DNA of 63,459 bases, counting the filler, from Rozella allomycis CSF55 (Eukaryota): assembly GCA_000442015.1 (NCBI GenBank). It is 6 parts of 6 records of this genome, joined end to end, with 100 filler letters (N's around TTAATTAATTAA, not from the genome) between each part and the next. Parts side by side here need not be neighbours in the genome. Positions count along the whole stretch, not along the records: positions 35,965 to 53,679 come from KE560829.1; 5 more parts are not named here. The stretch is one strand, 5' to 3'. The notes beneath the pieces are model-generated. The model saw nothing but the letters and a program-made list of their open reading frames with translations, did no database searches and was not told the DNA's origin. This document shows positions 14,976 through 60,767 of this stretch, in pieces; positions within the stretch are counted from its first letter, which is position 1, and every line of letters starts with the position of its first letter. The position numbers and the translations under genes are program-made.

Positions 14976-15075
14976 NNNNNNNNNNNNNNNNNNNNNNNNN
15001 NNNNNNNNNNNNNNNNNNNTTAATTAATTAANNNNNNNNNNNNNNNNNNNNNNNNNNNNNNNNNNNNNNNNNNNN
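14976..15075. other. Scaffold spacer (Ns around TTAATTAATTAA); identical spacers at 35865-35964, 53680-53779, 55421-55520 and 60668-60767
   Basis: The same 100-nt N pad with a six-frame stop linker occurs five times. Confidence 0.98.
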
Positions 15076-15238: not shown

Positions 15239-16742
15239 TTAGTTTATTAAAGGATTGATTTCGCTCATGAATTGTTTTATATCGTCCTTCATGTTTTCAA
15301 ACTTTCTTTGAACTACCAAAATTTCTTGCTCGTGATTCTTTTTTAAAAGTTGAATCTTTCAATGACATAGTAATGTTTTACCTTGTTATTGTGTGATTCT
15401 ATTTCATTATTGTAATGATTTATTTTATTTTTGACCTTTTGATTTTCAAGTTTAATTTGATTGTATTCTTCTTGTAATGACTTTAGTTTTGATTGAATAT
15501 TTTCCTTTTTGCTCTCTTGTTGAATTCTTAAGCGATTCAATTTTTCTTCAGCGTTATTGAGCATTCTTTCCATTTGCTAATAATACTCAGTAAGATGAAT
15601 TTACTTGTTTTTTCACATCAAATTCACGCAATATTTGTTGCTGCTTGTATATCGCATCTTTTAAATCATTCAATTTTGTTTTGCTTTCATTTTCTCTGTT
15701 TAAGATATTTTCACAATTTCCAAAAACATTCAAACAAGAATCTAACTGAACTTGCAAAGAGTTTAATCCTTCCAGTTTAATTTGGAGTTCTCTACTCTTT
15801 TTCTCATTCAGATTTAAAGAGTTTTTCTCTTCGGCAATCTTATCATGAAAGTCTTGTATTGCCTTTATTTCTTATTTAATATTTGTTTACTTGCATCAAT
15901 TTTTCTGGGCTTGAGACTATCCTTCCTCTTAGGCGATTAATCTCCTGTTTCAAGCTCATTAAATTTTCTTGATTTTCATGCTAATTACATTTATAATATT
16001 TCTTTACTAATTTATCACTGAGTCTGACTTTTTCTGCTTTGGCCTTTGTATATTTTTCTGAAAGAACTCCTTGTTCATTTCTCAATTGAACCATTTTCTC
16101 GACAAGAGCTTGATTTTTCTTTTCTGCGTTCAAAACGGCTGGCTCTTCTTGCTCTCTCTGCAATCTTGTGAAATACATGCCTTCTGTTTACTTTATTCCA
16201 TCCACCTTGGCTTTTAAATCTCTAGTCACTGCACTCAATTCGTCTCTTTCCTTGCTTAATTGGTTCTTTTATAACAAAAATGCTTAATTACTGCTCGTTC
16301 TGTTATTTCTTCATAAATCACAGCGTGTTCTTCTCTGAACTTTGCAAAATTTATAATATACGACAATATCATTTTGAACCTCTTAAATTTTATTAATGGC
16401 TTTACCTTTTTGGTTCCGGTTGAAGAATATCTTTAAGAGAAAAATCCTTGATGCCTGCTTCATACATAAACTCATTTCTATCATACCAAAATCAACTATT
16501 TACAAAACTTTAAAGAAAGATATAAAAGATAAACTTTCAGTGTGCATCTCAGGATAATCTAACATTTGTAAGACCTCAAAATTTGGCTGCGAAAATTGTT
16601 CCTTTGTAACACCAACAAAGTACTCCAAAAACATCTCATAAACCCGCTGAACAGTCTGGGGTGTTGGTTTTAATATATCCTGCTCTGATAATGGTACGTT
16701 CAGACATTCGCAACACTCTACGATATCTTTGACTTTTAGCAT
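15239..16742 (-). CDS. NUF2: Kinetochore NDC80-complex subunit Nuf2, multi-exon
   Basis: N-terminal LKVKDIVEC..LSEQDILKPTP, DFSLKDILQPEPKRFKMILSYIINFAKFREE and IVSSPEKL, followed by a long coiled coil. Eight 26-28-nt introns restore the frame. Confidence 0.88.
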
Positions 16743-24300: not shown

Positions 24301-26978
24301 GAAGCATCAATTAAAGCTAAACAAGTATTAATTTTCATAAAGATTACAATAGTGGAAAAAGGCGAGTGATGTAGTAAATAACATGACCATTGAAGATGCA
24401 ATTCCATTGCATTTAGAATTGGCAAATAAATACTTTGAATTAAATGATACCGAAAGTGCTAAATGGCATTTCATGCAAAGTGGAGAGATAAAGATTGCAA
24501 TTGAGAAATTTCTTAAATCCAAGAAATGGCAAGACGCTTACGAGCTGGTTTTGAATAACAAAGATGAAAAAGATTTCTTGGATCTTATAGATGAACAAGC
24601 CAAAAAACTAGAATTTTCAAGTCCGAAAGAAGCCGAAGAAATATATTGTGTTATTAATGAGCCAGACAAGGCTATTTTGATGTACAAGAATAAGAAAGAT
24701 TATGTGAATTTGCTGGGATTAGTATCAAAGTATAGAAAGCAGCATTTGAATGAAACTTTGAATTTTATTGCTAAAGAGTTTGAATCAAGTGGTGATTATT
24801 CAACTGCCGAGATGTACTACTTGAAGGCGAATGACTGGAAATCTGCAATATCTATGCATACTTCTAACAATAATTTTGAAGATGCATATAGAGTAAGGAT
24901 ATTAATGGGATGTGAATAGATTGCAAAAGAATTTGGAAATGAATCAGCATTGAAACAAATAGCTTATATTTGGGCAAGATCGCTCGGAGGAGAATCAGGG
25001 GTTAATTTATTGCAAAAGTTGAATAAGTTGGAGCAAGTTATTGATTTCGCTGTGGATAATGGAAACTTTGAATTTGCATTAATTTTAAGCAAATTTTCAA
25101 AGTTTAAAGAAAAGGAAGTTGATGTTATTTATAAGCAAGCGATATTCTTGGAAGATGAAGGAAAGTATGAAGCAGCAGAAGCATTATTTGTGAAAGCTGG
25201 AAAACCAAGAGAGGCTATTTTGATGTACGTTCATAACCAAGATTGGGATTCAGCCTTGCGAGTTGCCGAACAATTTGATGTGTCCAGTTTGCAAGATGTA
25301 CTTTTGGGACTAGCGAAAGAATTATTTGATAAAAAGGAATACAAAAAGGCAGAGTCTTTGATTCTAAGAGCGCATCTTCCAGAAATTGCGATTAAACTTT
25401 ATCGAGAAAACCAAATGTGGCAGCAAGCGATAAAGTTTGCACTTGAGAATTTGCCAGCCAAAGTTCCAGAGTTAAAAGCAGAGTTTGAAGTTCATTCAGC
25501 AAAACTGAATAGCAATCAATTTCAAGTCAGTCAACTGCAAGCAGCGAAACAATTGGAAATTAATCAAAAATATTCTGCTGCAGTTGATTCTTATTTGATG
25601 GTTTTAAATGATAAATATTCGACACCGCAAGATATTGAAACTGCTATTAATTCTGCATTGGATGTTGTTTATAAACATTTACCTGATCAAATTATTGAAA
25701 CAGCTAAATTAGCTTGTGATTATTACATTTCCAAATCCAAATATTTAGAAGCCGGCGATGTTTACGCAGAAGCTGGATTATTTAAAGAAGCAATTGATGC
25801 ATTTATCAATGGCAATCTGTTTGATGAAGCGAGAAATTTGGCTAAAGAATCAGCGACTGAATTTGTTTCTTATGTAGAAAATTGTTATAAAAATTATTTG
25901 AAACAAAATAAAAATGCTAAAGATCTTTCATCGATTGATGTGAACGCGGCAGTTGAGTTATGCGCTAGGAATGGCGATTGGGAAAAATGTTTTGAATTGG
26001 CTAAAAATTCAGTAAGAAATATTAAACATTTTTAAGCAAAGAATTCAGAAACATTTGAGCATTATTTGAAACAGAGAGCCACAGAGTTAATTAGAGATGA
26101 ACAACTTGAAAATGTTTGTGATTTATTCTTGAAACATTCTTGCCCCTTGAAGAAAGATTTTCATGCCATTTATGATCAACTTTGTTTGTTAATTTTTAAA
26201 AATGGAGAAAAAGAATTAAAAAAGAAATTATTTCAAGTTTTATTCAATTTGGTATTTTCGTTAATTTTAGAAATAATAAGATTGGAAATCTTTCGTTTGA
26301 ATTGGCGCCAAAATCTTTACTTAAGTATCTTCTGGTTTTGTATTTAAAAGACAAAGTTGAATCATTTGAATTAAAAGGATTGAAGCCCCTTGTGGCTAAA
26401 ACAAATTTAAGTCTTCTTCGCTACACTGACATTTTGCCTTGCGATGAAGCTTTCCTTGCTGCTGGAAATGCCTGCAAAGTAATACACATTGTTAATCCAT
26501 TAATAGAATTCTGGCAAAACCAACATGGCGTTTGTCTGTTTCAATCGATTCCTTGATATCCAAGACGCCATTGAAGATGGAGCAAACGACATTGCATCTG
26601 GCCAAGACTTTCAATACTCGGACATTCCAAATGTATTCAAATTGCCAAAATTTAGTTCCATCGACGTAAAAACACAATCAACAATTTATTTAGAAAAATT
26701 TAACAGAGGAAATAAGAGATTGGGTGTTGAATACCTCACTTTCTAATGAGCCACTTAGTCCAGATTTAAGAAAATGCCAAAATTGCAGCAGCGACATTCT
26801 TATTTCATCTTTGAAATGCTGCAACTGTGAATTCGTTAATGAAACATGCATCGTCACTGGATACCCTGTCATTGATGCTATTGAATGCGATGCGTGTCAT
26901 AGAAAGGCCAACAAGGATGATTGGAACACTTACACGAAAACTTTTCATGAATGTCCATGGTGCAAGAAAATGATATAA
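21349..26978 (+). CDS. IFT172: Intraflagellar transport protein 172 (IFT-B), about 20 micro-introns
   Basis: MRLKY start, WSPNGKKMAV, GERKDKFGTK, FSPDSSKLAIAQSD, GTEWGDKKSICNKF, HNYKIDWLELS, AMEMYQELHKWD, WARSLGG, KPREAILMYVHNQDW, SLLRYTDILPCD, AFVCFNRFLD and C-terminal CIVTGYPV..ANKDDWN..CPWC. Confidence 0.97.
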
Positions 26979-35864: not shown

Positions 35865-35964
35865 NNNNNNNNNNNNNNNNNNNNNNNNNNNNNNNNNNNN
35901 NNNNNNNNTTAATTAATTAANNNNNNNNNNNNNNNNNNNNNNNNNNNNNNNNNNNNNNNNNNNN

Positions 35965-36921
35965 TCGTCCAAACCAAAGTTCGTGGACGAAATTTTACGC
36001 AAAAGCCCAAGATGGTGACTTTTTAGAGACTCTAAGTTTTCCCAAAGATACCTTCGAGTACATTTATTCATTTTTTGAAGATTGCTATGAGATGAAGACT
36101 GGTTTTGGGCAGCTGGGAAGACCCAGTCGCCTAACAAATAAACGAGCAGTCCTGGGTCTACTACTGTCTTTCTATAATGGAACATGCGGCAAAAACGCCT
36201 TTGTGTCCTTTTTGGAGTACCAATGTCGACTCTATCCAAAATCTTGTAGAAAGCAGAGATGGCCTTAAGAAAAGCGATTAACATGATTCCAGAAGCTGCA
36301 ATTAGATGGCCGACGTTACAGGAACAATACCTATGGGCTTCCAAAGTTACCGCGAAAGAACCTTTAGTCGGAAACAAATGGGGATTTGTAGACGGGAAGA
36401 ATTTTAGAGTTGAAAAGCCTGCCGACGCAAATACTCAAAACGCCATGTATAATGGCTGGCTTCATCAAACATTAGTTACAGGTACAATTTGTTTTGGCGC
36501 AGACGGAACTATTGTTTGGGCAAAACATAATTGCCCGGGCTCATGGAACGATGGCGACACCAGTCGTGCCCTCCAAAACAAACTTTCTGATCCACGTTTT
36601 TCTCCGGATCCCAACATGGGTATACTAAGTGATTCGGCGTTTCCAGTGCTGGGCGCCGTAAAAGGAAAAATTGTGACCCCATTGAAAGATGGCGATCTGG
36701 GTAGAATCCACCCATCGTGTAGATCAGCAGCCACCGCCATGTCTAATGCTATCACCTCTTTACGTCAAGCCGCGGAATGGGGAATGGGTGCTATCGAAAA
36801 GCCGTTTGAGAGATTGTTAATGAAATTACCTAGCAATAAGTTTAGAAGATCAATAAGACTGTCAAACATCTTTCGGCTTTATAACATTAGAGTTCGTCGC
36901 ACGGGAATAAGTCAAATATGA
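35965..36921 (+). pseudogene. Harbinger DDE transposase (DDE_Tnp_4), disrupted 5' part
   Basis: WGFVDG, YNGW, PGSWND, LSDSAF and RQAAEWGMG. The upstream HTH-like LCVLFGVPMSTLS is followed by an in-frame TAG at 36247. Confidence 0.88.
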
Positions 36922-36940
36922 AATGTCTTTTTTAAATAAT

Positions 36941-38023
36941 TTAATCTTTATTGTTCATTAGTTTCAACATCATCATAAATCGTTTATCGACATCTTCTCT
37001 TTCTTGTCGTCTTACTAAATCTCGTTCTTCCCTTTCTTCCTTACGAATTCTTTCAGCTTCTTGCTTTTCCTCCTTTCTCACTTTCTTTAAATATTCCATT
37101 TCCATTCGTCTTTGTTCCCGGGATTTTCTTTCCAACAAAAAAAAATTCATAAAATCCGATGAAGTTTCAAAATTTTCCTTTTCATGAGAGGTTTGATGTT
37201 GTTTCTCCAATCGCTTTTGTGCCGTGTGAGATAAAACATTATTATGTGGTACCTTTATCTTTCTCAAATCATCAATACCAAGTCTGAGATGAGAATACGG
37301 AAGATTTAATTTTGTTGAAATTTTCTTTACTCGCTTTGCACTGGGAGTTGAAAGTATAGAATTTGTTTCCGTGTCCAATTCAGGTTGCGTTGAAAGAGTG
37401 TTATCATCTTCAAATTGCGTGAAATCAAAAGATGGATCTTCAAATTCGTCTTTATTGTTATCGCCTAAAAGTTCGTCAAACGGCATTATCATATCCCCGG
37501 ATATGACAAAATTGGTAATAGCATTTGCCGCCGCTTTCTCCCATGGTTCTTCCAGTCGATCATCGTCCTCTTCAGCTACAGCATTGGTTGTTTCAATCAA
37601 CCGTTGAATTTGTTTAGCTTCTCGGACATGTGGAGGACAATCAGGATCCCCNAAATTGGTTACAGCATTTGCTGCCGCTTTATCCCTTGGTTCCTCCAAC
37701 CGATCATCGTCCTCTTCGGCTACAGCATTGGTTGTTTCAATCAATCGTTGAATTTGTTTAGCTTCTCGGACATGTGGAGGACAATCAGGATCCCCTACTT
37801 TATTTGCTTTTAATTCTTTACCTGTAGGTTTTGGAGTGTTTCTTAAACTATTAAACTTTCGTTTAATAGCATCCAACTCCCTATCAGCAAAACCAGACGG
37901 TCTGCGCAAATTGTACTTCACCGTGACCTCTTCCCATTGAAAGCCACCAGCAGGTAATATTTCTTTCACAATATCTAGCATTCTTTTGGTTTCACAATCT
38001 TTCCAACCTTTTCCTCTTGTCAT
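36941..38023 (-). CDS. Harbinger ORF2, Myb/SANT-like DNA-binding protein with acidic middle and coiled-coil tail
   Basis: MTRGKGWKDCETKRMLDIVKEILPAGGFQWEEV..RELDAIKRKF..KPTG|DPDCP, with an in-frame 27-nt intron. A segment is duplicated at the n join (37652). Confidence 0.75.
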   Translation of the reverse strand: MTRGKGWKDCETKRMLDIVKEILPAGGFQWEEVTVKYNLRRPSGFADRELDAIKRKFNSLRNTPKPTGKELKANKVGDPDCPPHVREAKQIQRLIETTNAVAEEDDDRLEEPRDKAAANAVTNXGDPDCPPHVREAKQIQRLIETTNAVAEEDDDRLEEPWEKAAANAITNFVISGDMIMPFDELLGDNNKDEFEDPSFDFTQFEDDNTLSTQPELDTETNSILSTPSAKRVKKISTKLNLPYSHLRLGIDDLRKIKVPHNNVLSHTAQKRLEKQHQTSHEKENFETSSDFMNFFLLERKSREQRRMEMEYLKKVRKEEKQEAERIRKEEREERDLVRRQEREDVDKRFMMMLKLMNNKD

Positions 38024-38325
38024 TTTGAGTTTGTAACCAGGGTGCGCTCGCAAATTTGCGATCGATTTGCGACGCTCGCAAAAAAAAATTTGCGAAACCG
38101 TNTATCTTTCCAACCTTTTCCTCTTGTCATTTTGTGTTTGTTACCAGGGTGCGCTCGCAAATTTGATTTTGCAAAAATTTGCGAAATCAAATTTGGGTCG
38201 AAATTTGCGATCGATTTGCGACGCTCGCAAAAAAAATTTGCGAAACCGTTTGCGCGATTTTCGAAACACGTCCATTGGTCTATTCAATTGTTTAGGACGT
38301 TAGGAATAANATTTCGGAGTATTTA

Positions 38326-41300: not shown

Positions 41301-44076
41301 CTGGTGTCTTTTAAGACACTAACTGTATGATTAAATCCATAGAGTGAATGGCGGGCAAATCGCATATGCCCAAAGTATATAAGCTCTAAATTCTTTCCAA
41401 AGTTTTAATCTCGCGCAATGCTGGCAAACAAATATTATTTGTAACAGGCTTAGAAATTATAGTAGGTTGTTCGTGTGGATTTGTGTTGTGAAAATCAGGA
41501 ACTGTAATATGCGCATTCGAATTATTAGTTGCACCGCTGGACCTTAATTGAGCGACCTCGTCCCTTTATTCGTTAACAGTGGAAACCAATTGCTGCATCA
41601 CAGACGTTACATGTTGGATACTGTTTACGTTTTGATCAAGCGAACTACCAACGCCGGCATTGAAGGCTACGTAAATACATCATTAATTGTCTTACGTTAG
41701 TTTCAAAACCATTGTGTTCCTTCACCGTTTGATCTACGTGCGGTATTTGGAGAAGCACGNTCGCGGGTTTAAATAACAAGTACTCCGGCGCTTTAAACAC
41801 TTCATGATCAAATACAAAATACGTCACTAAAGTCTTTTTTAAAATTGGAGCATCTTGAATAATAACTGTGCGAAGATACGTCAATAAGTTCAAAAAATTT
41901 TGAGTTGTTGCCTTGNTAGGGTCGCTAAAGACTTTTTGAAAATCGGAGCATCTGGAATAATAGCTGTGCGAAGATACGTCAATAAGTTCAAAAAATTTTG
42001 AGTTGTTGCCTTGTTTGGTATTTTGCCGATTTCAATTTGGTGTTTTATATTTTCGATAAAAGCGAATATTATTCGTTGAAGCTCCAAGCTAGGTTTAAGT
42101 TCAGATCGGCGAAAGTTGTAGCTACCAAGATGTGATGGAAAACCCGCCAAGGCCAAAAGGAGCTGCTTAGGTACATTGGAACTTTGATAACATCTTTTGC
42201 GTTCGTTGTCCGCTTCCCATAATCCTTGCCTATCGACCTGATCTCCGCTAACGCCNTAAAAGGGAATATCATTCGTTGAAGCGCCAGGCTAGGTGTAAGT
42301 TCAGATCAGCGCAAGTTGTAGCTACCAAGATGTGATGGAAAACCCGCCAAGGCTAACAGGAGCTCCTTGGGCACATTGGAACTTTGATAACATTTTTTGC
42401 ATTCATTGTCCGCTTCCCATAATCCTTGCCTATCGACCTGATCCCCGCTAACGCCGAGGTCTTCCGCAATACAAGCCGCACCGACACGTCGTATATGTGT
42501 CACCTTAGAGCCTTCCAAGCCAACCTAAGTAATTCGTATTAAATATAATTTTACATGATTAATACGGTCTTTCACTAACCGATTGTGTGTGTGATAGGAC
42601 AATGGGTTTTCGGGTCGTCGCTGTAAATAAGAAAGTTTCCCCCTAACAAGCCATTTTTGTCTGTCCAGTCCAGTTTTTCCTTAAGAATATCAAACCGATA
42701 AAGTAACCAAAAACCTAATGCTGCCACCGGACAGGTTAAAGGATTTCTATGTCTCGCTAGATGTGCTACTCACAGCTATGTATTCATTTTGACCCAAATC
42801 AAATCGTCCTCGTTTATTTTCCTTGCCATCACGCGACCAAACATAAACAATATCAATTTCAGTGTTGCTAGACAATCCATATGTTTACCGAATTCCGAGA
42901 TCGGCTAACAAGATCTTGCGCGTCATATCGCCTCTTCCAATAGTTTGATGACTTACAAGTTGATCTAACAANTCACAATATCAATTTCAGTGTTGCTAGG
43001 CATTCCATATGTAGCCCGAATACCCAAATCGGCTAACAAGATCTTGCGCGTCATATGGCCTCTTCCAATAAATTGATGACTTACAAGTTGATCTAACCAT
43101 TGTTTAAGACCTCGTTCAGTGTTGGCGCAAAATGCGAAACGACACATTTCAGCATGTTGCCGCAAGGAATATCCTTCCGAAACTGAAAGTTCACCTTGGC
43201 GATCATTTAAATGCCTTTATGAAGATATAGAACTGTTTGTACTTGGCGGCTTGTCTACAAACTTCCAATTTAGGATAATCCATTCTCAATCGACGTCAGT
43301 TTATACTCTTTTTATCTTACGATTTACTATCCAATTTATGAGGTTTAAGATACTATAAGCGCATGGAGCGACATTTTTTCGATTGAAGAAGAGANAGAAT
43401 ATCCTTCAGAAACTGAAAGTCCACCTTGGCGATCATTTAAATGCCTTTATGAAGATATAAAACTGTTAGTACTTGGCGGCTTGTCTACAAACTTCCAATT
43501 TCGCATTGTCTACGGCTTGGGAAATTAATTCACGTTCTGATTGCGAAATCGCAGTACATTTCCCTTCTGCCGCATGCAATTTGTTTAAATCCACCACCGC
43601 TTGAGTGTAGCTTTTGATAGAGTTCGCAGAATAGACATCTTATATCAAAATACCCCATCCAACGTACTGCCGTTTCGGTTAGTTTGAGTTTTAAGCCAAG
43701 TAGTAAAATTAATCACATTTAATGTGTTTGCTATAGGTTGAATGTTTAACTCGTCACAAAAACGCTTTGATATTGGTGTTATAAATTTTCTTACAGAAAA
43801 GATAGCAGTTCCAGTTGCCCACGTTTTATTACTCCCTTTTGGTCTCATTTCTATCGTTTCCTTTGTAACGTGGAGGCGAGCTTCATTCATGGTTCCCAAA
43901 ACCATTCCAGAGGGGGCTACTTTTTTCAAGCAAACTATAAGTCTTTGGTTTGATTATGACAACTAAATTACGATTGTTTTTGGTTAAGAGCGCTCAGTGT
44001 GAGCGAATTGGTGGCGTTAGTCTTTTTTGGCATGACGCCGTCAAAGGTTATAAATTTCACAAATGGACGCTGGTGC
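38326..44076 (-). mobile_element. Crypton-type tyrosine-recombinase element(s) (NDC10-II plus GCR1_C); several collapsed, partly decayed copies
   Basis: GRGDMTRKILLAD, GKENKRG, ARHRNPLTCPVAALGFWLLYRFD, KVTHIRR, RQGLW, KCY, LAGF, YLRTVIIQDAPIL..HFVF.H.VF, and a GCR1_C-like RDIKTLERIWSLYTLG. Blocks repeat across the n joins. Confidence 0.82.
40055..40550 (+). mobile_element. Ty3/Gypsy-like LTR retrotransposon gag-protease fragment
   Basis: Zn-knuckle-like YYCEFHKNNPRVRHNTEDCR and LCDKCAQPYEKGHNEVC, then aspartic protease-like AGIDSMSTHSFIS. Confidence 0.72.
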
Positions 44077-44161
44077 AAGATATTAATGGATGTCTCCGCA
44101 TTAATGATTTTTTAATAAATCGTTATAAGTTCAAGTTGATACAAATAAAAGTATTTATTGG

Positions 44162-44995
44162 TCAATTTTTATTGACTGCATTTTCAATTTCTTCCGATAT
44201 CTTATTGACATCTTGTTCCTGTGATTTCAATGCTTCTTCTCTTTTAGCTTCGTCGTCTAATTTCATCAATTCCATGATTTGTGACAACTTCCAGCGATAA
44301 ATTCGATTAGAAAACAGATTGACGGTCCTTTCACATTCCTGGTTTATTTTCTGTGTTTGCTTAGCAATCCTTTCTTTGACAGGCCAAATCCAATTTCTAT
44401 AAGCCATTAAAGTATCTTCAACGCTCATGTTGTAAGTAACTGGGTTCATCACTGCATTGTATATTGACTGATCTAGCAATTCGCGGTTTATAATATTTTT
44501 AGACGATGTCACCTTCAAAAAGTTAAAGTCTTCTCTTCTTTCAATTTCTTTATTGGTAACAAATGCTGATTCTCTGGCACGTCTAAGTAACTTGAAAATT
44601 CGTTTGTAATTCAGCTTTGTTTTCTGCAGTGGAGTAATAGTTTTTGGTTCCATGACAAAAATGCCTTTAAATGAAAATAAATAGTTTTACCTGAGGGTGG
44701 CCGTGGTCTAACTTCTTTTACTAGTGATAAACGCTTTTTCTCTTCCATCAAGTCGATTTCCTCTCTCAGTTTATACCAATTTGCACGTCTTCTCTTTAAT
44801 TCTTTAATGTATAATACTCTTCTCCTATTCATAAGGTTGTAGCTCATTTTACCATTGAAAATTGGGTGCATTGCGTATGGTGTCTTGCTTCACCATTTCA
44901 TGAGCTATTTTAGGTGTTAAGGGGATGTCTGTTTCTTTAGAAATTGACCTTACAAACAACTTGTTGGGAATGAATGGTTTAAAATAGGTCCTCAT
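44162..44995 (-). CDS. Uncharacterised basic/coiled-coil protein with a mitochondrial-presequence-like N-terminus, 3 exons
   Basis: Removing two short GT-AG introns gives MRTYFKPFIPNKLFVRSIS..NFQW|RRVLYIKELKRRRANWY..PPSG|IFVMEPK..AVNKN*. Confidence 0.6.
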
Positions 44996-45099
44996 TTACC
45001 AACGCCAGGGTTCAAATTTACAACTCTCAAATGGTTAAATGACATGAAGAAAGGGTATTTAAAATTGCAATTTATTATCAAACAAAGCAAAAGTCTAGT

Positions 45100-46648
45100 C
45101 TATTTTTTTCTTGTACTTCTTTCTACAGCACACATCCAAATTCTTGTCTTGTAAATTTTGAACAATTCTCTGACAAGTTCGCGAAAGTCAATTCTTCTGT
45201 CTGCCACGAAATAAAAAGTAAGTTTCCTTCTATCCCTAAAAATTAAACAAAAATAAAATTTACCATTGATACTCAGCATCAACAACTTCCATCGGTAGCT
45301 TCTTCTGCCTGACTTTCGCCTGACAAACTGCCATGGCCTTTTGTTCATCAAGTGCTTTCGCTTGAAGTTGTGAAACGTCGTCAGCGTCAGCTAAGCGGTA
45401 TATTATTTTAGGCGAAACTGCGACGGTAGAAACATTTTCTCCATCACTACCAACATTTAAATTAGAAAGCGATTGGGATTGCTCAAGAAAGGTTTCATAA
45501 GTAATTTCTTCTACAATCTTCCCCAAGTCCTATTAAACGTAGATTATCATTCGTACCTTTCCGCGATCAGCCTCCACGATAACCAAATCGCCTGAAGAAG
45601 CAAATTTTTCTTCCGCTTCAGGAATAAAGAAAAAGTCTGTTCTTCCAGCTTTAAATTCAACTACAAAGATGGGCCCATTATTTGTTGCTGGATTAAATGG
45701 TCTAGATTTAGAATCAGAATTGGCCCTGGACCTAGCTTCTCCACTAAAATATTCATCTATAGCATCCATGTTTATTTTTTGAGTATTTCTTTCGCTCAAC
45801 GAAAGATTTTCTATTTTATCTATCGCATCATTTTGTATCCCGCCAAATAGTAATGACTCTGCCACCGAGTGACGTCTCTGAAGCTCCTCATTATCCCTAT
45901 TTTGTACCATAATCCTCGCTTACCGTTGTTTAAAATCTATCAGGCTATTCTTACGATTAGGGGAATCCATTGACGGCGTGGAATATGAAAAGCGGGGTTG
46001 CAACGTCTTTAAGCTTGGAGTACTGGCGATCGAAGGCATCGCAAAATTTTGTTCATCGTTACTAGTATTCTCACCCTCCCATACTGTCTTTAAATGAGCG
46101 CCAGGTTCTTCCCATGGATGATTGTTCACTGGAAAACTTTGCGACTTACTTCTTGATCTTTGTTTATTGTCATCTGAAACATTCGAGTTAGAGCTGGGGG
46201 TTATAGCTAGTGAGAATCTTCTGTCATATAATAAGCTTGTAGAATCAGGCCATATATTGTTGTTGGTATTCCATGTCATTCCAAGGGCTGAAACAGTTCT
46301 ATTTCTGGGATTACCGGGAGCCTTCCAATCTTTTCCTGGAGATGTTTGGGTTCTTGTTCGTGCAAATCCACTAATTGGGTTACCATTAATGTTTAATGGT
46401 CCGAAAATGGCTGTCTCTTGAGTTGGTGACGTAAACGATGATAAAGCTGGAGAATGCATATTCCAGTCTGGTAAATGACGAGAAAGCGGACTGGTCGGAA
46501 TCATACTTGTAGCAGACATGTTTACAGTATCTTCCAGAGCAAAACTTGTAACAACTTGTTTCTCTGCCAAATATTTTGTTTCATAATCTTCTGCGTTTTC
46601 TAATAGCTCACCGAGATTAGAATTCAATATGTTTTCTGTATCGTCCAT
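45100..46648 (-). CDS. PSP1 C-terminal domain protein
   Basis: [28 protein letters not shown] and [48 protein letters not shown]. Three ~27-nt introns. Confidence 0.9.
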
Positions 46649-46786
46649 ACTTTTAAAAAGATTTAACCAATACGGAACTTTGTGGCGCAGACATCCAGTT
46701 GATCAGAACTTAATTTTAAAGATGAAGATCTCCATAATCAGAATCACGAGAGAAATTTAATAAATAAACTTTCTTAATTAATAAAA

Positions 46787-47927
46787 CTATTTTAATTTAT
46801 TCAAATGCTCTTTCAAAAACAATTCCGCAGACTGGCGCAAGGCTTTGTTCGGGGATAATTGATCAGGTGTGGCATCCATCAAGCAATTTGGGCAAACAAA
46901 CTTTCTATTTTGATCTTCGACTAAAGATTTTCTTATGCACTCATCACAATAATCTGTCCCACAACAATTGATTGATACGGCGTCTCTTATTAGACTGCTA
47001 CAAAGCGGACAAGTCAATCCAGCTGGAATGGCAAGTTGTGATAACATTGAAGTTATGTCTGACATTGTAGAACCTTGTTTTAGCTGATTCAGCTTTTCCC
47101 ACTCCGACCTGCTTTCTTTTAAATAAATCGCTTACGTATTTGCTTGAACTACGACAAGACTACCATCATCAGTAACCATAACCGTTCCATTAGCTTTGTC
47201 GATTTCTGAAGCATCCACAGTCTTGAGAAAACCTCTGCAAAGAATATAAAAGGATTACTTTTAGGAATACCAGTCGTTCTTTTAACTTTTAAAAGATCAA
47301 AGCTCTTGTCAGAATTTGTAGGGCACTGATGAATGAAGTGACCTTTTTGTCCACACCGGTAACATATGTAATTTGGTGGTGGCTCTTTTGTTATAACTTT
47401 AGCTTTTCTTTGCTTATTTAATTGCATAGAAAGTGCAGAATTATCTTCAATTTGCTTATCCCACTGCAGAAAAGAACTTTCCACCATGGCTGCTATTTTA
47501 TCGTTTTCTGTTGAGTTAACACTAAAAAATACCTAAAGACATGACTTACGCTAATCCTGGTATCAAAGAGGAGTTTAAATTTTTCAGTTGCATTGATAAT
47601 GAAGACTGTTCCACCTTGCTAGCAACAACAGGTTGGATTTTTTGCTTCTTTACAGCATTTAGTGGTACTCTTCTCACTATAACCAACGAATTTTTGGCAA
47701 CAACTTGGGAATCGTCACTATATTCTTTGTTTATTTATTGTTTTTTGTTTACCCTCTTTTGATTGGGCGTCTGAAATGATCAAGTCAAAATCCATGTAAC
47801 CGCTTTTAACAAGCTTTTTCTGTTGGATAATTTCTTTCTTTAAATCATAGATCGTGATTCCAGTGCCGTCAAATGTGATTTTGTCAAATCCCTTTGCACT
47901 TTTAAACTTGTAGTGAATAGTTGACAT
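46787..47927 (-). CDS. MPE1: Mpe1/RBBP6 cleavage-polyadenylation factor (DWNN, zinc knuckle, RING)
   Basis: MSTIHYKFKSAKGFDKITFDG, PPPNYICYRCGQKGHFIHQCPTN, KRTTGIPKSFL and LTCPLC..CCGTDYCDECI..CPNC. Confidence 0.92.
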
Positions 47928-47955
47928 TCCCGAATTTCTGTATCAATTACGAAAG

Positions 47956-49218
47956 ATGAATTTATTGTCCTCGTCCAAATCGATATTGAAAGTATTATCA
48001 AAGGAAGTTCAAATTGATTCGACATACTTCAACATTCCAAAAAATATTCTGGAAAAAATACCTTGTCAATTGCATCGTAAAGAAAACCATCCCGTTAATC
48101 TCATATCGAAAAAGATACAATGTAGTTTAACAGATTATGTACATTTGAATGATATAAACCCTGTAGTGACCAAGAAAGAAAATTTTGACGACTTACTGTT
48201 TCCATATGATCATCCTGGAAAAAGCAGAAGCGATACATATTATTTTTCGGAATCTCATTTGTTAAGGACTCATACATCAGCACATCAATTGAAGCTCCTG
48301 CAGCAGTTTGATAAATTTACTTTAACAGCTGATGTTTATAGAAAAGACCAGATTGACAAAACGCATTATCCTATATTTCATCAGATGGAGGGCATAAAGA
48401 CGTTTCATAAAGATATGTTAATGGCATTGAAATATTGCAATGACGCATTTTCTGAAGAACAAATTATGACTCAGGAATGTCATTCAGTTGACGAGGTGAA
48501 GAAAGTAGTGACAGATTTAAAGTCCCAACTAACTGCTATAATTAGAAATTTATATGGCGACGTTGAAACTAGGTGGATAAACACATATTTTCCATTTACA
48601 CAACCTAGTTTTGAGTTGGAAATAAAGTTTAGAGGAGAGTGGTTGGAAGTACTGGGTTGCGGAGTTATAAGACAGGAAATTTTGAACAATGCAGGTATTG
48701 GATGTTGATTTTTGTAGTAAGGAAAGGGTCATATGATTGGATGGGCCTTTGGAATAGGGTTAGAACGATTAGCTATGTCATTGTTTGATGTTCCTGATAT
48801 AAGACTGTTTTGGTCTAAAGATCCCAGATTTATGACTCAATTCGAAAGGAATGGGTTAAAAACAAAGTACCAACCATTTTCTTCTTTTCCCGCAATTACT
48901 CGGGACATTTCATTTTTCAGTCCAAATTCATTTCCAATTCCAGAAAATGACTTGATGGATGTTGTGAGAAATCATGGCTCGGATTTAGTTGAGAGTGTTT
49001 ACAAGGTACCATAAAAAGTTCTCCATTTTAAAGTTTGACGAATTTCATCACGAAAAAATAAATCGCAAAAGTTTCGGCTACAGAATTGTATATCAAAGCA
49101 TGGAGAGGTAAAAAATACTACTTTTATGTACAGGAACTTGACGGACAAGGAAGTCAACAACATTCAAGACTCAATCAACCACGAGTTGCAAGAAAAGTTT
49201 AAGATCCAATTTAGATAA
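47956..49218 (+). CDS. MSF1: Mitochondrial phenylalanyl-tRNA synthetase (FARS2/MSF1)
   Basis: [76 protein letters not shown] and a C-terminal FDX-ACB domain (RDISF). Confidence 0.95.
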
Positions 49219-49254
49219 TAAAGCTTATTTCAAAGGTTAAATTAATTTATTGAC

Positions 49255-52200
49255 TTAGTTCAATCCGCAGCAACCAATGTGGAGAGCTTTGTATTCTTCC
49301 CATGTCTGAAGAGAAACAGAATTTTTCAAGTCTTGCAAATTTGCGAATCCCATGGCCCAGTAAGAAGGTTTATCATTTGAATGAGAGTGTCTGTTTGGCA
49401 ACTCACGATAATGATGAATATTGCAACGATTTGCCAAATAATATTCGATTAAATCTTCACGGTTCAAGTCAACGAGTAGCCTTTCAACTAATGAAGTGTC
49501 AGTGACTCTGATCCCATTCCCTTTATTCCAAATTTCTTCATCAAGATACTTGCCAGTAACAAGAACGATTAATTTCTGAGCGTGATGCGGGTAAATCTTT
49601 TCAGATTGTAGCAAACTCTCAATTAAAAGGTTAACACCTACTTGATAAGCATCAGAAAACTTGAAAGATCTACACCCCTTGGAAATTCCTTCCTTGAACA
49701 ACTTTAGAAATTTATCAAATGATGTTTCATTCAACATTAGCATCGCTAGCTCATTGCTCAATATTTCAATTTCTTTTTGCTTTTTCTCTTTAACGCGCAC
49801 GGAATAATCATTGGCATAAAATGATTTTGCTTTATTGTAGAGAACCTTTTCAATGGCAGAAAAACATCCAGGATCAGGAAATGTAACTTTTCTTGTATCC
49901 AAGTCCACATCTGCAATTCTAGAATCCAATGTAAAGTAATGAAGAGCTTGAAAAACATTGATGAAACGAAAGAAAGGCAGATCAGAAATTTCGAGTTTTG
50001 AGCAAACCAATTCGTCGGAATTTTCGTCAATTTGTTTTATCCTTTCAATTTTTTCATTGATGTTTAATGTTTTCGAATTGGCTACAGCAAGATATTCTGG
50101 CAACACAGCAAGGAGTTCGATTTTGGAAAAATCAGAAAATACTTCTTGGGCGAATGCAATGTTACGATCATAGGAAAAGGTACTGTAAGGGTCATTTGGC
50201 TCTTCTACGAAATATTCCTGAAGGGGAATACCATATTTTTCAAGGTCCAGGTTGAGTAATTTCTTCATCACTTCATTGCGATCCTCTGTTTTAAACCGTT
50301 TTCGTATGATATTCCAAAGCTCGTAAGAATAAGTCGAACGGAGAATGCGGGGAAGTTCTTTAAGAGAATCATTAGTTAAACACTCGCTTAATGGGGCAAT
50401 TAAATGAGAAACACCAAAATAGGTTCCAATATCAAACGCCATGGTACTATTGTTGGATTCCGCAGTAAGAAAAGGCACGAGTTTTCTGCAATTGGATTTC
50501 ATGACTATTGAAAGTTGATCAACCAGCATTAAAAATGTTTCAATTTTTACGGTCGATTTGTCTTTGTTCAAGATTTCAATCATTTTATAGCAAGAATTAG
50601 CAATAGATGAGCCGAAAGTGTAAGGGACATATGAAATCATTCTTCGCATTCCTAAACTGGCAAGGTACTCCATCATTGTTGGCGCGTGTTTCATCAGAAA
50701 ATTTAGAATTCTTAAATCGTCAAATATAGGAATAGCATTCACAATAGGTCGTTTACTTCCCGGGGTGTAAATGTTATTACTTTTTTCCTTTGCGGCGACT
50801 AAGAGATCAGCCACACTCACGTGACAATCGAAATGAATGTCGTTCAAACGCCAAGTCATGGGGTCTGGATAATCTCCAACGGGTGCTTCACACGGGACAC
50901 CTACAATATTAAATAATAAAAGAATTTCAAGTGCACTTGCCATTTCAATAGATTCATCATCAACAAGGGCACAAACAGTCTTGATGCCTTCCAAAGTCGT
51001 TTCTTGAGAAATAAATGACACTCTGTGATTTGAATCATCGATACCGTTCAGTTCGTGAATATTGGAATGCATCATTCGAACTTCTTGTCTAACAATTGCA
51101 TCAAAGTCAAGTTGATTGTCACATGCCATGGCCCTTCTTGCTAAACCCTTTGCAGTTTTTCCAGAGGCAGATCTCAAATATTCAGCTTGCTGTGATGCAT
51201 TCAGTTTCTCCACGCGGTCATTGTTGGCAATTTCTGCAAAAAGTAAATCCAATGCCTTCTTTTGCTTATTCACATTTCTCTTTAATATTTTCAACCTATC
51301 TTTCAATTTCAATTCATCAAATTTCGACCCTAGCTCGTCCACTGACTCTGGAAGGCTGACACACCAAACGGCCATTTTATTAAAGTACGACGTAATTTCT
51401 TGAAGCTCAGCACGAGAATTATCCGTATTAATAACTTTAAGTAATTTTATCTTTTGCAGAAAGGCTTCCATTTTGGCATTCACTAGCATCGCATATTCAT
51501 CACGTGACAAAGAGTTAACATTCATGTTCATCTCAACTATTTTTCCATCAAGAGTCAATGGCTGTTCAGGCAATTCATCAAACCAAATAAAATTCTGACC
51601 CGCTGACAATTGAACTTTATTTGTACCCGAGGCCTTCCATGGTTCAAGTTTCATAATGGCCTTTCCACAACAAAGATCAACAGTACCAAATGAAAAGCCA
51701 TCATTATCAAATAACTTTACTATTTCGCTTGCAATGGCTTCAATAGAATCATTTGCGTTAATGTCCACAATGCTAAATAATGTATTCGAGTTATTCAACT
51801 GAAGCAAACTACATAATGCTCGAGTATCTGGCTGTCCATAATTTGAAGTAAACAGTCTTATTGACTGCGAGCTTACCTTGAGCCCCATCTTATCAACAGT
51901 TTCTTTCACCGACTGCGCTGCATCTTGAGTTTCCTTTTGATCAAAAATCTCCCCATCAGATATCGTAAGTATTCTCACATGACTTCCCTGTGTAACACAA
52001 AGCTGTCCAGATAACAAAGGCATCACTCCAGCCATGGAAGTTCCTCCTTGATGCCCAATTTCGTATCTTGCCAGATCAGAAATTTTTAAGCATTTCTTTT
52101 CGGACTTACAAGTAAAAGTTATGAATGTTATCAGGTCAGACAAGTCGTAGTTTAAACTACTCAAAGCTTTGGGTAGAATCTGATTTGCCATACGACTAGC

Positions 52201-52323
52201 GTGGTGACACATAGAGCCAGAAATATCCAAAATGATAATAAATGGGGTCTTTTGGGTAGCTTTTCCACTCTCATTAACTAGTATTTTGCCCAAGAATCCG
52301 TCGCTGGTTTGGTAAAATTCCAT
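49255..52323 (-). CDS. Large intronless vWA-domain protein of unknown function
   Basis: 1022-aa ORF with MIDAS-like ILDISGSM, GGT and LTISDGE. The rest is unassigned and ends in a His/Cys-rich tail. Confidence 0.85.
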   Translation of the reverse strand: MEFYQTSDGFLGKILVNESGKATQKTPFIIILDISGSMCHHASRMANQILPKALSSLNYDLSDLITFITFTCKSEKKCLKISDLARYEIGHQGGTSMAGVMPLLSGQLCVTQGSHVRILTISDGEIFDQKETQDAAQSVKETVDKMGLKVSSQSIRLFTSNYGQPDTRALCSLLQLNNSNTLFSIVDINANDSIEAIASEIVKLFDNDGFSFGTVDLCCGKAIMKLEPWKASGTNKVQLSAGQNFIWFDELPEQPLTLDGKIVEMNMNVNSLSRDEYAMLVNAKMEAFLQKIKLLKVINTDNSRAELQEITSYFNKMAVWCVSLPESVDELGSKFDELKLKDRLKILKRNVNKQKKALDLLFAEIANNDRVEKLNASQQAEYLRSASGKTAKGLARRAMACDNQLDFDAIVRQEVRMMHSNIHELNGIDDSNHRVSFISQETTLEGIKTVCALVDDESIEMASALEILLLFNIVGVPCEAPVGDYPDPMTWRLNDIHFDCHVSVADLLVAAKEKSNNIYTPGSKRPIVNAIPIFDDLRILNFLMKHAPTMMEYLASLGMRRMISYVPYTFGSSIANSCYKMIEILNKDKSTVKIETFLMLVDQLSIVMKSNCRKLVPFLTAESNNSTMAFDIGTYFGVSHLIAPLSECLTNDSLKELPRILRSTYSYELWNIIRKRFKTEDRNEVMKKLLNLDLEKYGIPLQEYFVEEPNDPYSTFSYDRNIAFAQEVFSDFSKIELLAVLPEYLAVANSKTLNINEKIERIKQIDENSDELVCSKLEISDLPFFRFINVFQALHYFTLDSRIADVDLDTRKVTFPDPGCFSAIEKVLYNKAKSFYANDYSVRVKEKKQKEIEILSNELAMLMLNETSFDKFLKLFKEGISKGCRSFKFSDAYQVGVNLLIESLLQSEKIYPHHAQKLIVLVTGKYLDEEIWNKGNGIRVTDTSLVERLLVDLNREDLIEYYLANRCNIHHYRELPNRHSHSNDKPSYWAMGFANLQDLKNSVSLQTWEEYKALHIGCCGLN

Positions 52324-52439
52324 CTAAGGTGGCTTGGAAGATGTGATCTAAACCTTGAATTACATTTTGGAATTTTCAGAAATTTATTTGATTGAGTCTC
52401 ACATGAAATTTAGAAACACCATAAAGCCTGTTAGTATCC

Positions 52440-53679
52440 AAATAATAACCGATAAAATGTAACCAGAGTTTTATTGATGTAATCATGGTTATCGGACGGG
52501 GAGGTACGACCCGGACTCCAGACACGATTATTGAAAATNGACCGATAAAATGTAACCAGAGTTTTATCGATGTAATCATGGTTATTGGCGTATAATTTCC
52601 TTCAATATAGATATTGATCATTATTTATACAGCATTGTAAGAGTCAACATTCCCTTTGTTAATCTCGCTTTTGCGTCTATAAAAAGTATTTTTTTGCAAT
52701 ATGCGAGTGAAGTGAGTACAAACCCTAACTATGGACAATGTGGTGGGAACCCGGAGCCGTTATCTTACAACGTTAGCACATTAGTTTTGACTCGAAGGGA
52801 ACTATCTGTACGAGATCACTACTCATCAACTTCGTCAGTTTATTATTCAAGAATTGCTTTGTTTCGAGAATCAGAAAGATTTCAAAACATTTCAATCGGA
52901 AAGTGTTGCTTGTCAGTTATCTGCATCTGTAATACTAAAAGCGGAGTTGCCATGGTAATTGGTTGTCAAGAATATAGATGAACCTTCCATGATGCCAACA
53001 ATGAGTAGTANGTTCATTCCATATTTCCATAGCAGGGAATCAGAACGTCCCATATTCGAAGTACTTAAAATTTAAAATCCATTCGATAGCAAACATGTGA
53101 TGTATTATGAAATATTTTAATCATCAGCTCAAATATTCGGCACGATAAAGGAAATCGTAGTTTTTAGTTCGGTTGCCACTTTTCGCGATTATTTTACGTT
53201 TAAAATAATAAAAAATATAATAATATTAATTATGAATTTGTCTTTATTTATTTAGTGAATAATGGTGCTGTTCCGAGTTTCTCATTATCAGTATTCACTC
53301 ATTAGTCATTTAGTCATAATGATGAATTCTCAAGTAAAAACCGTGTTAAATTGTTTGTTTTTTTAAGATCAATTTCAATTAAGCGAATTGAGAATTGATC
53401 CGTTAAAAAGGAAGGACAATTTCTAAGTTAAGAAGAAGCATTTCGTCAACATAAAAAATAACTATTGTCTATTCATATTGCAATTTATTAGAATACCTCC
53501 CCGTCCGATTAAACGAGCACTGCGAGACTTGTTGGCGTAGTCATAATCAAAGATTTGACCCTTGTAATATTTTTCCCATAACTTCCTTCAATATAGATAT
53601 GATCATTATTTATACAGCAATGTAAGAGTCAAAATTCCCTTTGTTAGTCTCGCTTTTGCGTCTATAAAAAGTATTTTTT
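52440..53679. repeat. Local duplicated non-coding blocks (52449-52493 vs 52541-52588; about 52590-52695 vs 53577-53679)
   Basis: ccgataaaatgtaaccagagtttt.. and ttccttcaatatagatat..gtaagagtcaa..gcttttgcgtctataaaaagtattttt each occur twice. Confidence 0.8.
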
Positions 53680-54133
53680 NNNNNNNNNNNNNNNNNNNNN
53701 NNNNNNNNNNNNNNNNNNNNNNNTTAATTAATTAANNNNNNNNNNNNNNNNNNNNNNNNNNNNNNNNNNNNNNNNNNNNTGACTCGGAATTTTGATAAAT
53801 AGATTGTTTTTATTCAGTTGTTAAAGAACAGAAGTGAAGAAAGAAATCAAAAGATTCAATAGTGAAGGAATCGATATAGGATTCAAAGCAGTGAGAGGCA
53901 GAGGGGGCGACATAGGAGACAATAAGACAGAGGATGAAGAAACTGATATACGAAGAATGCAATCAAATCTAGTTCATGCATTTGAAGTTTACAAAAAGAT
54001 GAATGAAATGGCAGATAAGGGATGTTTGTTTTTGAGGCATGAACTAACATGATGAAGTCTTGACCGACCAAATATGGATAGCAAAGGGCGGAGATGCTTA
54101 GGATTCACGATTACGGATTATACGGAAATGATT

Positions 54134-54334: not shown

Positions 54335-55520
54335 TTCCCGCTCTTTTCACAATGAATCGCAAAACAAAAATGAAATAACGAAGAATAATCCTAAATTCAG
54401 GAAGGAATGCAAAAATATATATTCTGGGGATTCCGTGCGTGGTTTGGTAGATTTTCGCCTACATTCCATTTTTTGTTATCATTTAACATGTTAAAAGACA
54501 AATGCTAGCGTCGGCGCGAATACCAATCATTGTTTTCTTATAAATCAACATCAACTAAAATAGTTTGGTGGTGAAATTAGAGATTCATTTTTTGTTTGCA
54601 TCTGGCAAATCTTTTGATTTGGGTTTTTGGGAAGCAAATTATTCTTGTCACAGGCAATTACTTCATATGCGATAGTTTCCGCCCTTTGCTATCCTCATTT
54701 GGTCGCAAATCGTCAGATTTCTTTTACTGTGGTGAAGCCTACTTATGTGAAATACTTGTTGTTAGAACTATTAGTCAATTTTATCTATTTTAAGACAGAT
54801 GATTATATGGTTCGTTCACTTGCGACATGGCGAAAGGGGAAAATAGATGGAGGTTTGGGATTCTTTATTTGACGGAAAGAAAATAGGTACATGTTTAACA
54901 AAGTGACAGGAGATTTCGAATGGCAACTTACGATTATATTATAGTTTTGCGATATTCTTAAAAATATGAAGTCCAAAATCGTTAAATGAAATGAAACTTC
55001 TGTTTACTTTCTTCTTAATTGACTTCTGATCTGGATTGCAAAAGTAATGCGTATAAATCACTTACATAGAGTGTCTTTGTTCTATATTGACGTTGTGCTT
55101 GATTCGTCTAACTGTAACTTTCAATCAAATTAAGAGGTCAAAGGACGTTTCTAATCCTGAATCTACTAATTGTTATAAATTGGCTGAAATATTTCAAATT
55201 AATATTCGAGAAAAAGCAAATAACTTGGGATTCGGAGTTCATGCTCATGATATGACAGTGCCTGTGCAACTACCAAAGTCCATGTTTATGTTGATTGAAG
55301 ATGAGAACCCATATATACTCTATTTAAAGCAGAAAGTGCTTACACGGTTTTTCCCTGCTAATTATATGAAGGTTAAAAATGGTCCAGTGAGAAATTCTAA
55401 GCGTCAACTATCTGAAAACGNNNNNNNNNNNNNNNNNNNNNNNNNNNNNNNNNNNNNNNNNNNNTTAATTAATTAANNNNNNNNNNNNNNNNNNNNNNNN
55501 NNNNNNNNNNNNNNNNNNNN

Positions 55521-60667: not shown

Positions 60668-60767
60668 NNNNNNNNNNNNNNNNNNNNNNNNNNNNNNNNN
60701 NNNNNNNNNNNTTAATTAATTAANNNNNNNNNNNNNNNNNNNNNNNNNNNNNNNNNNNNNNNNNNNN

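Follow-up and report, generated by a model that had tools for sequence, protein, structure and literature searches.

Intron 3 of an RBBP6/Mpe1 homologue in Rozella allomycis CSF55 is, in our judgment quite probably, a genuine 26-nt U2-type GT-AG intron that is cut after a GAG, with a CAG ending two nucleotides earlier left unused through a blind zone that covers distances of <26 nt from the donor. Introns predicted throughout the 63-kb window (the whole stretch of DNA that was analyzed, 63,459 nucleotides including filler) support a limit of 26 nt in this window, in the sense that the first AG at or after that distance would be the one taken. The third intron of the Mpe1 gene would therefore be an ordinary instance of a clean property of this genome, and ultra-short introns of this kind are already known elsewhere.

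If the rule holds genome-wide, it would give a one-line, testable account of 3' splice-site choice in thousands of tiny introns, and would add a lineage on the fungal side to the few cases of introns <30 nt. Searching for the first AG at or past 26 nt would also mend many Rozella gene models.

The Mpe1 gene and its third intron

The host gene is a homologue of RBBP6/Mpe1, as judged from a predicted DWNN domain, CCHC knuckle and RING. RBBP6/Mpe1 is one of the subunits of the machinery that cleaves and polyadenylates mRNA 3' ends. Spliced translation of five exons on the minus strand, from an ATG at 47927 to a stop at 46787-46789, yields a 343/344-aa protein. Exon 1 encodes 58 residues, which match the Rozella allomycis CSF55 proteins P0121 (O9G_005013) and P0122 with 100% identity; both of these public models are predictions, not transcripts. 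The same exon matches the N-terminal ubiquitin-like DWNN domain (Pfam PF08783, E = 2e-19), and the match carries on into exon 2, with profile positions 1-53 and 55-74 continuous over intron 1; the DWNN part can also be aligned to structures 2c7h (human RBBP6) and 6i1d. A CCHC zinc knuckle (zf-CCHC_2, PF13696) is present and is followed by a conserved GIP-x-x-F-L stretch. The C-terminal finger scores 30.2 bits against zf-C3HC4_4 (cut-off 30) and 21.0 bits against U-box (cut-off 21.4), and this region was aligned to the RBBP6 RING structures 2yur and 3ztg.

The exons and introns of the gene are listed in Table 1, together with other introns of the window in which an AG is skipped. In intron 1, use of a TAG located 7 nt beyond the used AAG would shift the frame. 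Two AAGs precede the used CAG of intron 4, one at 20 nt (out of frame) and one at 24 nt (in frame); since P0122 aligns gaplessly to yeast Mpe1, the 27-nt form is favored over the in-frame 24-nt form.

Table 1. Exons, introns and splice-site candidates discussed in the text, in coordinates of the window
Feature	Position	Strand	Details	Basis
Exon 1	47753..47927	-	N-terminal DWNN part, ATG	Pfam DWNN 1-53; identity to P0121/P0122
Intron 1	47725..47752	-	28 nt, GTAAAC...AAG, first AG past donor	DWNN continuity; gapless to 2c7h and yeast Mpe1
Exon 2	47550..47724	-	DWNN end and linker	frame, Pfam
Intron 2	47522..47549	-	28 nt, GTAAGT...TAG; out-of-frame TAG at 17 nt skipped	frame
Exon 3	47259..47521	-	CCHC knuckle, ending ...TTGIPK plus 1 base	zf-CCHC_2; yeast Mpe1 residues 128-216
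Intron 3 (studied)	47233..47258	-	26 nt, GTAATC...GAG, phase 1	frame and homology over junction
Skipped CAG of intron 3	47235..47237	-	intron positions 22-24, its A = position 23	sequence
Used GAG acceptor of intron 3 (predicted)	47233..47235	-	intron positions 24-26	frame, homology
Alternative donor of P0121	47265..47270	-	GTATTC, 12 nt upstream, same GAG acceptor	model comparison
Exon 4	47136..47232	-		frame; aligned to yeast Mpe1 within P0122
Intron 4	47109..47135	-	27 nt, ends CAG	P0122 has 27-nt form, gapless to yeast Mpe1
Exon 5	46787..47108	-	RING/U-box, stop TAG 46787-46789	frame, Pfam
NUF2 intron	16380..16405	-	26 nt, AAG at 24 skipped, GAG at 26 used	Pfam Nuf2 89-110 / 113-139
Class II Phe-tRNA synthetase intron (neighbor gene)	48695..48721	+	TAG at 23 skipped, AAG at 27 used	
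IFT172 intron	26012..26041	+	AAG at 25 skipped (early stop), AAG at 30 used	frame, ORF only
Forced skips, GAG at 22 nt	21939, 23334			frame
Forced skip, TAG at 23 nt	48695			frame
Forced skips, AG at 24 nt	16405, 36246, intron 3			frame
Forced skip, AAG at 25 nt	26012			frame

Read on the minus strand from 47258 to 47233, intron 3 is GTAATCCTTTTATATTCTTTGCAGAG (26 nt), and its flanks are ...CCTAAAA and GTTTTCTC.... When the intron is retained, the frame runs to a stop at 47149 (ORF 47149..47532), and a cut after the CAG, whose G is intron position 24, leads into the same dead frame as the unspliced RNA. A cut after the GAG, at position 26, joins the zinc-knuckle exon in frame to exon 4 and then to the RING exon. 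Boundaries moved by +1 or +2 would give an identical mRNA, but the intron ends would no longer be GT-AG, and thus GT...GAG is the canonical reading.

Homology was followed over the junction. Exon 3 can be aligned to yeast Mpe1 (PDB 7zgp_F) through its final residue. The predicted protein P0122, which has exactly the GAG junction, aligns gaplessly to the same yeast chain over the junction, and can also be aligned through it to the human RBBP6 knuckle construct 2ysa. Three loci were found by an alignment-based metagenome scan; in two of these relatives, L003 (GC 0.26) and L001, the stretch corresponding to the junction lies in one unbroken frame with no intron. A metagenome scan with P0122 alone as query returned no relative, and exon 4 alone, when compared with the PDB, gave only repeat matches to designed 'Pizza' propellers, which are uninformative.

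The initial annotation had held that the frame is kept, and the conserved TTGIPKSFL obtained, only with the GAG at 26 nt. The reading frames, the Mpe1/RBBP6 alignments and the two metagenome relatives all agree with it. From frame and homology we infer that the GAG of intron 3 is used and the CAG is not, and that productive mRNA of the Mpe1 homologue comes from cutting after the GAG. A metatranscriptome that carries the same species label placed no reads on positions 43396-52538.

With a GT at its 5' end, an AG at its 3' end and a frame that is restored by its removal, intron 3 has these features of a U2-type intron. U12-type introns are marked by an extended donor, (A/G)TATCCTT, and a branch site resembling TCCTTAAC. 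Assignment of intron 3 to that type was rejected, given its donor GTAATCCT and no U12-like branch motif. The intron was also considered as a NAGNAG acceptor, with which it shares a pair of AGs within a few bases of each other at the end of the intron. This assignment was rejected as well: the AGs are spaced by 2 nt rather than 3, so that the CAG breaks the frame instead of giving a one-codon variant, and there is no sign that both are used.

Intron length and acceptor choice across the window

The length rule was examined in the 63-kb window with introns from our own predictor. This exon chainer uses codon log-odds trained on the long ORFs of the window and accepts any GT...AG of 15-50 nt, with intron length and the base preceding the AG left unweighted. 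On the dominant strand it returned 84 introns, whose lengths peaked strongly at 26-29 nt. In the reversed window, which served as a control, it found 7 chains and 2 introns, compared with 42 chains and 92 introns in the real one. Introns of 20, 21, 23, 24 or 25 nt were never predicted in the unconstrained run, versus 16 of 26 nt.

A high-confidence set was then defined by a GTA donor, a stop within 25 codons upon retention, flanking exons ≥60 nt long and a chain score ≥40. Three artefactual introns that connected the stop of Mpe1 with the following gene were discarded, which left 56; intron 3 itself lies outside this set. For each threshold T from 8 to 40, we scored a rule by which the acceptor is the first AG that has its G at or after T, an intron being counted as a fit when this AG is compatible with the downstream frame. 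The number of the 56 introns that fit rises from 28 (T ≤ 10) through 45 (T = 20), 50 (T = 24) and 52 (T = 25) to 53 at T = 26, and above this optimum it falls to 45/56 (T = 27), 36/55 (T = 28) and 24/55 (T = 30). When all GT introns that are necessary for frame are counted, T = 26 fits 65 of 71. The summed chain score did not discriminate among values of T.

Of the three introns that miss the rule, two are choices of the chainer for which alternatives that obey it are available. The first has a 28-nt alternative at 61938-61911, and the second a 29-nt one with a donor at 31303 and the acceptor unchanged. The third (4576-4545, minus strand) is left as an exception: use of the CAG at 26 nt would bring a stop into frame, and it is a TAG at 32 nt that fits. 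Its read-through frame, however, likewise stays open as far as a stop, and it belongs to a low-scoring chain.

The 53 rule-consistent introns have a median length of 28 nt, and 45 of them are 26-29 nt long (12 of 26 nt, 12 of 27, 14 of 28, 7 of 29, 4 of 30, and one each of 32, 36, 37 and 41), with the qualification that frame cannot tell apart acceptors separated by a multiple of 3, as with 22 versus 28 nt at 9019 and 23566 and 24 versus 27 nt in intron 4. As an independent check, Pfam domain profiles run on over several junctions, including Nuf2 (22-85 / 89-110 / 113-139), Nuf2_DHR10 (2-81 / 82-117), PSP1 (2-45 / 50-85) and DUF3336 (31-78 / 80-134), the last of which favors 28 nt over an in-frame 22 nt.

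The initial annotation had proposed a minimum intron length of about 25-26 nt and acceptors chosen by their distance from the donor. The optimum at T = 26 is in line with this proposal and places the limit at 26. Tabulation of the window points the same way: the reading frame demands that seven AGs at 22-25 nt be skipped, six in the high-confidence set plus that of intron 3, and no intron of ≤25 nt is required anywhere. As between 25 and 26, it is the single IFT172 intron (26012), by virtue of its frame, that would put the limit at 26.

Three of these skips occur in genes unrelated to Mpe1. The NUF2 intron is an exact repeat of the layout of intron 3, with an AG at 24 nt skipped and a GAG at 26 nt used. 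In the Phe-tRNA synthetase gene, the tRNA-synt_2d profile picks up at positions 211-246 only in the frame given by the 27-nt intron. The exon 5' of the IFT172 intron matches IFT172 (8bd7_S) residues 1083-1447, and the exon 3' of it had no match in the PDB.

AGs upstream of the used sites behave as though they were not seen. There are 57 in the 53 introns, of which 37 lie at ≥10 nt; among these, 13 (about one third) are in frame with the used site, which is the rate expected if skipped AGs are never used. AGs with their G at 7-25 number 42, compared with 49.3 ± 5.0 in shuffles, and so are not depleted. An AG with its G at 20-25 was found 11 times in the 53 introns. Because AGs at this distance are common, a skipped AG just before the used one appears to be an ordinary by-product of the rule and not specific to the Mpe1 gene. 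The chance that an intron ends, per position from 26 to 30, is 0.23-0.50 compared with a background of ~5%, and this large excess indicates that introns are kept close to the minimum.

Internal signals and the origin of the 26-nt distance

The base at -3 in the 53 rule-consistent introns is T in 27, A in 21, C in 4 and G in 1, whereas the intron interior is composed of 38% A, 40% T, 8.5% C and 13% G. GAG acceptors are thus under-used (1/53, P = 0.005). The initial annotation had described GAG as the least-used acceptor, which stands, and had expected the first YAG normally to win, which does not carry over to this window: AAG is about as common as TAG, and there is no pyrimidine preference at -3.

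Other signals are sparse. Donor positions 5-6 are almost without information, and the A at position 3 is imposed by the filter. On the acceptor side, only an A at -4 and the avoidance of G at -3 stand out. A search of the window introns for a branch motif found no localized yTnAy-type signal, only the enrichment of A at position 23 from the donor and at -4. Among the 49 introns of 26-30 nt, 37 have an A at position 23, whereas A makes up 38% of the interior. In the introns of 27-30 nt, a small sample, the proportion is 27/37 (P ~2e-5; 11/12 at 27 nt, 8/14 at 28 nt, 4/7 at 29 nt and 4/4 at 30 nt), so that the donor-anchored A is no weaker than the one anchored to the acceptor at -4 (24/37). Both GAG acceptors in the window, those of intron 3 and NUF2, belong to 26-nt introns that end in AGAG. 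Since A is common at position 23, nearly any intron with a G at position 24 will contain a skipped AG there, which explains this pairing.

We propose that the 3' splice site would be the first AG whose G is at or past position 26, counted from the first G of the intron, and that AGs ahead of this point would be passed over. Introns would also be held near the minimum length, mostly at 26-30 nt. Our best guess is that the distance would be set by a fixed geometry between the 5' splice site and the branch site. In intron 3, A23 is the A of the skipped CAG; this CAG would then overlap or adjoin the branch region, leaving the following AG as the sole reachable one. In 26-nt introns, a branch A at position 23 would leave a very short distance of only 3 nt to the 3' splice site. 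What the DNA itself shows is the sequence, the reading frames, the homology over the junction and the fit of the rule in the window; that the spliceosome follows a 26-nt rule, and what would set the distance, are conclusions drawn from these patterns. A hard lower limit, with AGs undepleted right up to it, would bear on how spliceosome geometry sets the minimum size of an intron.

Elsewhere, the default acceptor is whichever AG comes first downstream of the branch point. Among the other explanations, branch-point scanning is the best placed; we consider it somewhat short of an even chance. It holds that the branch site is at a near-constant place, so that '26 nt' would be the minimal distance from 5' splice site to branch plus the minimal distance from branch to 3' splice site. 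AGs upstream of the branch, or only a few bases from it, would be unreachable, and the first AG after these would be used. The conserved A at donor-anchored position 23 and the A at -4 are consistent with scanning, but no yTnAy-type motif could be localized. Moreover, a branch at ~12-16 would make AGs at 22-25 usable, yet seven of these are skipped, and a branch at 21-23 leaves only 3-9 nt to the 3' splice site. Some encouragement for scanning comes from passages of PMC13644364 in which the A's of myxobolid and Dicyema introns shift likewise with intron length and are speculated to be the branch site. A ruler that starts at the donor and one anchored at the branch are inseparable here, because intron lengths span only 26-30 nt.

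A bolder version, which we regard as possible but doubtful, is that a donor-anchored device operates in thousands of Rozella introns. The branch A would be at ~21-23 nt, AGs at <26 nt would be invisible and the next AG would be cut. The distance from branch to AG would then be 3-9 nt, and the requirement at -3 would amount to little beyond 'not G'. If true, this device would have a third independent origin beside those of myxobolids and dicyemids, and its spacing from branch to acceptor would be among the shortest known.

It is improbable, in our estimate, that both AGs of the CAGAG in intron 3 are used, with the frameshifted CAG product removed by nonsense-mediated decay and the GAG mRNA being the surviving or minor form. 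Splicing at the CAG could in that case amount to noise, or serve to dampen expression. Dual use would accord with the intrinsic superiority of CAG over GAG as an acceptor and with the rarity of GAG in the window (1/53). However, the lack of depletion of AGs at 7-25 (42 versus 49.3 ± 5.0) and the chance rate of productive frames (13/37) are not expected if early AGs are used at a costly level. The recurrence of the AGAG layout in NUF2 and the fact that introns of ≤25 nt are nowhere needed also argue against it.

Very improbable is the reading that the true intron is the 38-nt one of GenBank model O9G_005013 (P0121) and that the 26-nt intron is a mis-annotation. The deposited protein does read ...RTTG|FLKTV..., but the longer intron deletes four residues that are kept in yeast Mpe1, human RBBP6 and the two metagenome relatives. 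P0121 also loses part of DWNN, skips the RING exon and is fused to a downstream gene with a PSP1 domain. The GenBank model thus sidesteps the tiny introns of the Mpe1 gene at the cost of conserved residues and the RING exon, and by joining two genes. Even so, the 38-nt intron would still need the GAG with the CAG skipped, and the oddity remains.

Finally, an assembly error or a decaying gene, in which an indel of 1-2 bases near the junction fakes the need for the GAG, is scarcely credible: although the window is draft sequence, interrupted by gaps and by many single N's, positions 43396-52538 contain no N, the site does not lie in a homopolymer, the gene shows no other damage over its five exons and the skip pattern recurs in unrelated genes.

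Relation to other short introns

Narrow classes of very short introns are also known in nucleomorphs. In yeast and mammals, a recognizable branch site serves as the reference point for an AG exclusion zone, and AGs are depleted between the branch and the acceptor. The pattern in Rozella resembles this zone, and scanning in general, in that the first AG past a reference point appears to be taken while nearer AGs would be invisible. It differs in that no branch motif was detected and the choice is predicted by distance from the donor. Furthermore, AGs in Rozella are undepleted up to 1-2 nt before the used site.

Close parallels are found in animals. Myxobolids and Dicyema japonicum have median introns of 22-27 nt, a 5' signal reduced to GTa, little 3' signal beyond the AG, and weakly conserved A's that lie farther from the AG in longer introns, according to passages of a recent study (Hadjez et al., Mol Biol Evol 2026, PMC13644364). 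Rozella introns are likewise ultra-short, with reduced signals and a donor-anchored internal A (position 23). Unlike these animals, Rozella belongs to the fungal side, and its introns disfavor GAG and appear to have a hard lower limit of 26. In the portion of PMC13644364 drawn upon here, Rozella is not named in the list of lineages with introns <30 bp, and no explicit rule of a 'first AG beyond a fixed distance' is given.

Ciliate introns are comparable in size, with 21-29 nt in Nyctotherus ovalis and 20-33 nt in Paramecium given in excerpts of PMC2633312. By the same excerpts, they share with Rozella introns a narrow length window, the form GTA...AG, no detectable branch motif and a frame that is broken by retention. 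Nearly all ciliate acceptors are TAG (46/48 in Nyctotherus) in that source, whereas AAG is about as frequent as TAG in Rozella, and the lineage and the minimum are different.

Microsporidia, the sister group, are a related lineage with very short introns, but they keep few introns and have strong, extended branch motifs, as described in part of PMC6349667. A passing remark in the same source notes two putative introns of ~30 nt in Rozella S23 that do not have the microsporidian 5' and branch motifs. Rozella is rich in introns, at 2.5 per kb in the relevant passage of PMC8476143, and motifs of the microsporidian kind are lacking from its introns. Fungal medians range from 29 to 197 bp (PMC8042348), and the species with the 29-bp minimum is unnamed in the text. 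Our search of the Rozella intron literature, which covered sources other than the original genome paper (James et al. 2013), found no length or acceptor rule; as far as we found, such a rule for Rozella has not been described previously.

The window has a GC content of 35% and contains LINE elements and ciliary genes, including IFT172 and polycystin-like genes. Rozella, which is related to Microsporidia, forms zoospores and parasitizes the water mould Allomyces; the presence of IFT172 and polycystin-like genes fits its flagellated zoospores.

Internal sequence of short introns and a possible departure from the rule

Of the window's 49 introns of 26-30 nt, 37 have A at donor-anchored position 23 and 34 have A at acceptor position -4; the remaining internal positions carry no information in this set. 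The sole high-confidence intron at odds with the rule that the first AG at least 26 nt from the donor is used lies on the minus strand (4545-4576). There, splicing at the CAG at 26 nt would create an in-frame stop (TAG), and the acceptor that fits is the TAG at 32 nt. Because the unspliced frame is likewise open as far as a nearby stop, this stretch may be a gene end instead of an intron.

GenBank model of the Mpe1 homologue

The GenBank prediction for the Mpe1 homologue (P0121, O9G_005013; 645 aa) spans 44165-47927 on the minus strand. It merges this gene with the downstream PSP1-domain gene, which starts near 46653, into one protein and leaves out the RING exon. Longer introns of about 49 and 38 nt stand in for the tiny ones, and conserved residues are lost. 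This older annotation seems to have systematically avoided introns under about 30 nt.

Other genes, mobile elements and N's

Some 20 introns, each 26-32 nt long, break up the IFT172 gene. Our exon-chain predictor carries it on into the downstream RRP12 gene (27.5-30.5 kb); the gene boundary probably lies near 27.0-27.3 kb. Nine tiny introns are found in the polycystin-1-like gene, whose domain architecture, here in a rozellid, is better known from animals. The Harbinger-like gene has a 29-nt intron in line with the rule, in which an AAG at 24 nt is skipped.

Other features of the window
Feature	Position	Strand	Remarks
IFT172 gene	21376 to about 27000	plus	match to Chlamydomonas IFT172 (8bd7_S)
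Polycystin-1-like gene	30628-35864	minus	REJ, GPS and PLAT domains
Harbinger-type DDE_Tnp_4 ORF, adjoining DUF6818 ORF	36250-38140
ORF without introns, 1022 aa	49255-52323	minus
LINE-like ORF, intact, 1591 aa	55751-60526	minus	endonuclease domain

The 1022-aa ORF has no Pfam match of its own. Its relatives, at 30-38% identity and some labelled VWFA, are spread patchily among chytrids, bdelloid rotifers, chironomids, haptophytes and giant viruses (Terrestrivirus, Hyperionvirus), and this distribution suggests horizontal transfer.

Forty-four N's, 12 real (non-N) bases and 44 further N's recur in this layout at five places (14976-15075, 35865-35964, 53680-53779, 55421-55520 and 60668-60767), and about 28 single N's stand alone in the window. 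The pattern looks like an artefact of masking or scaffolding, not ordinary gaps.
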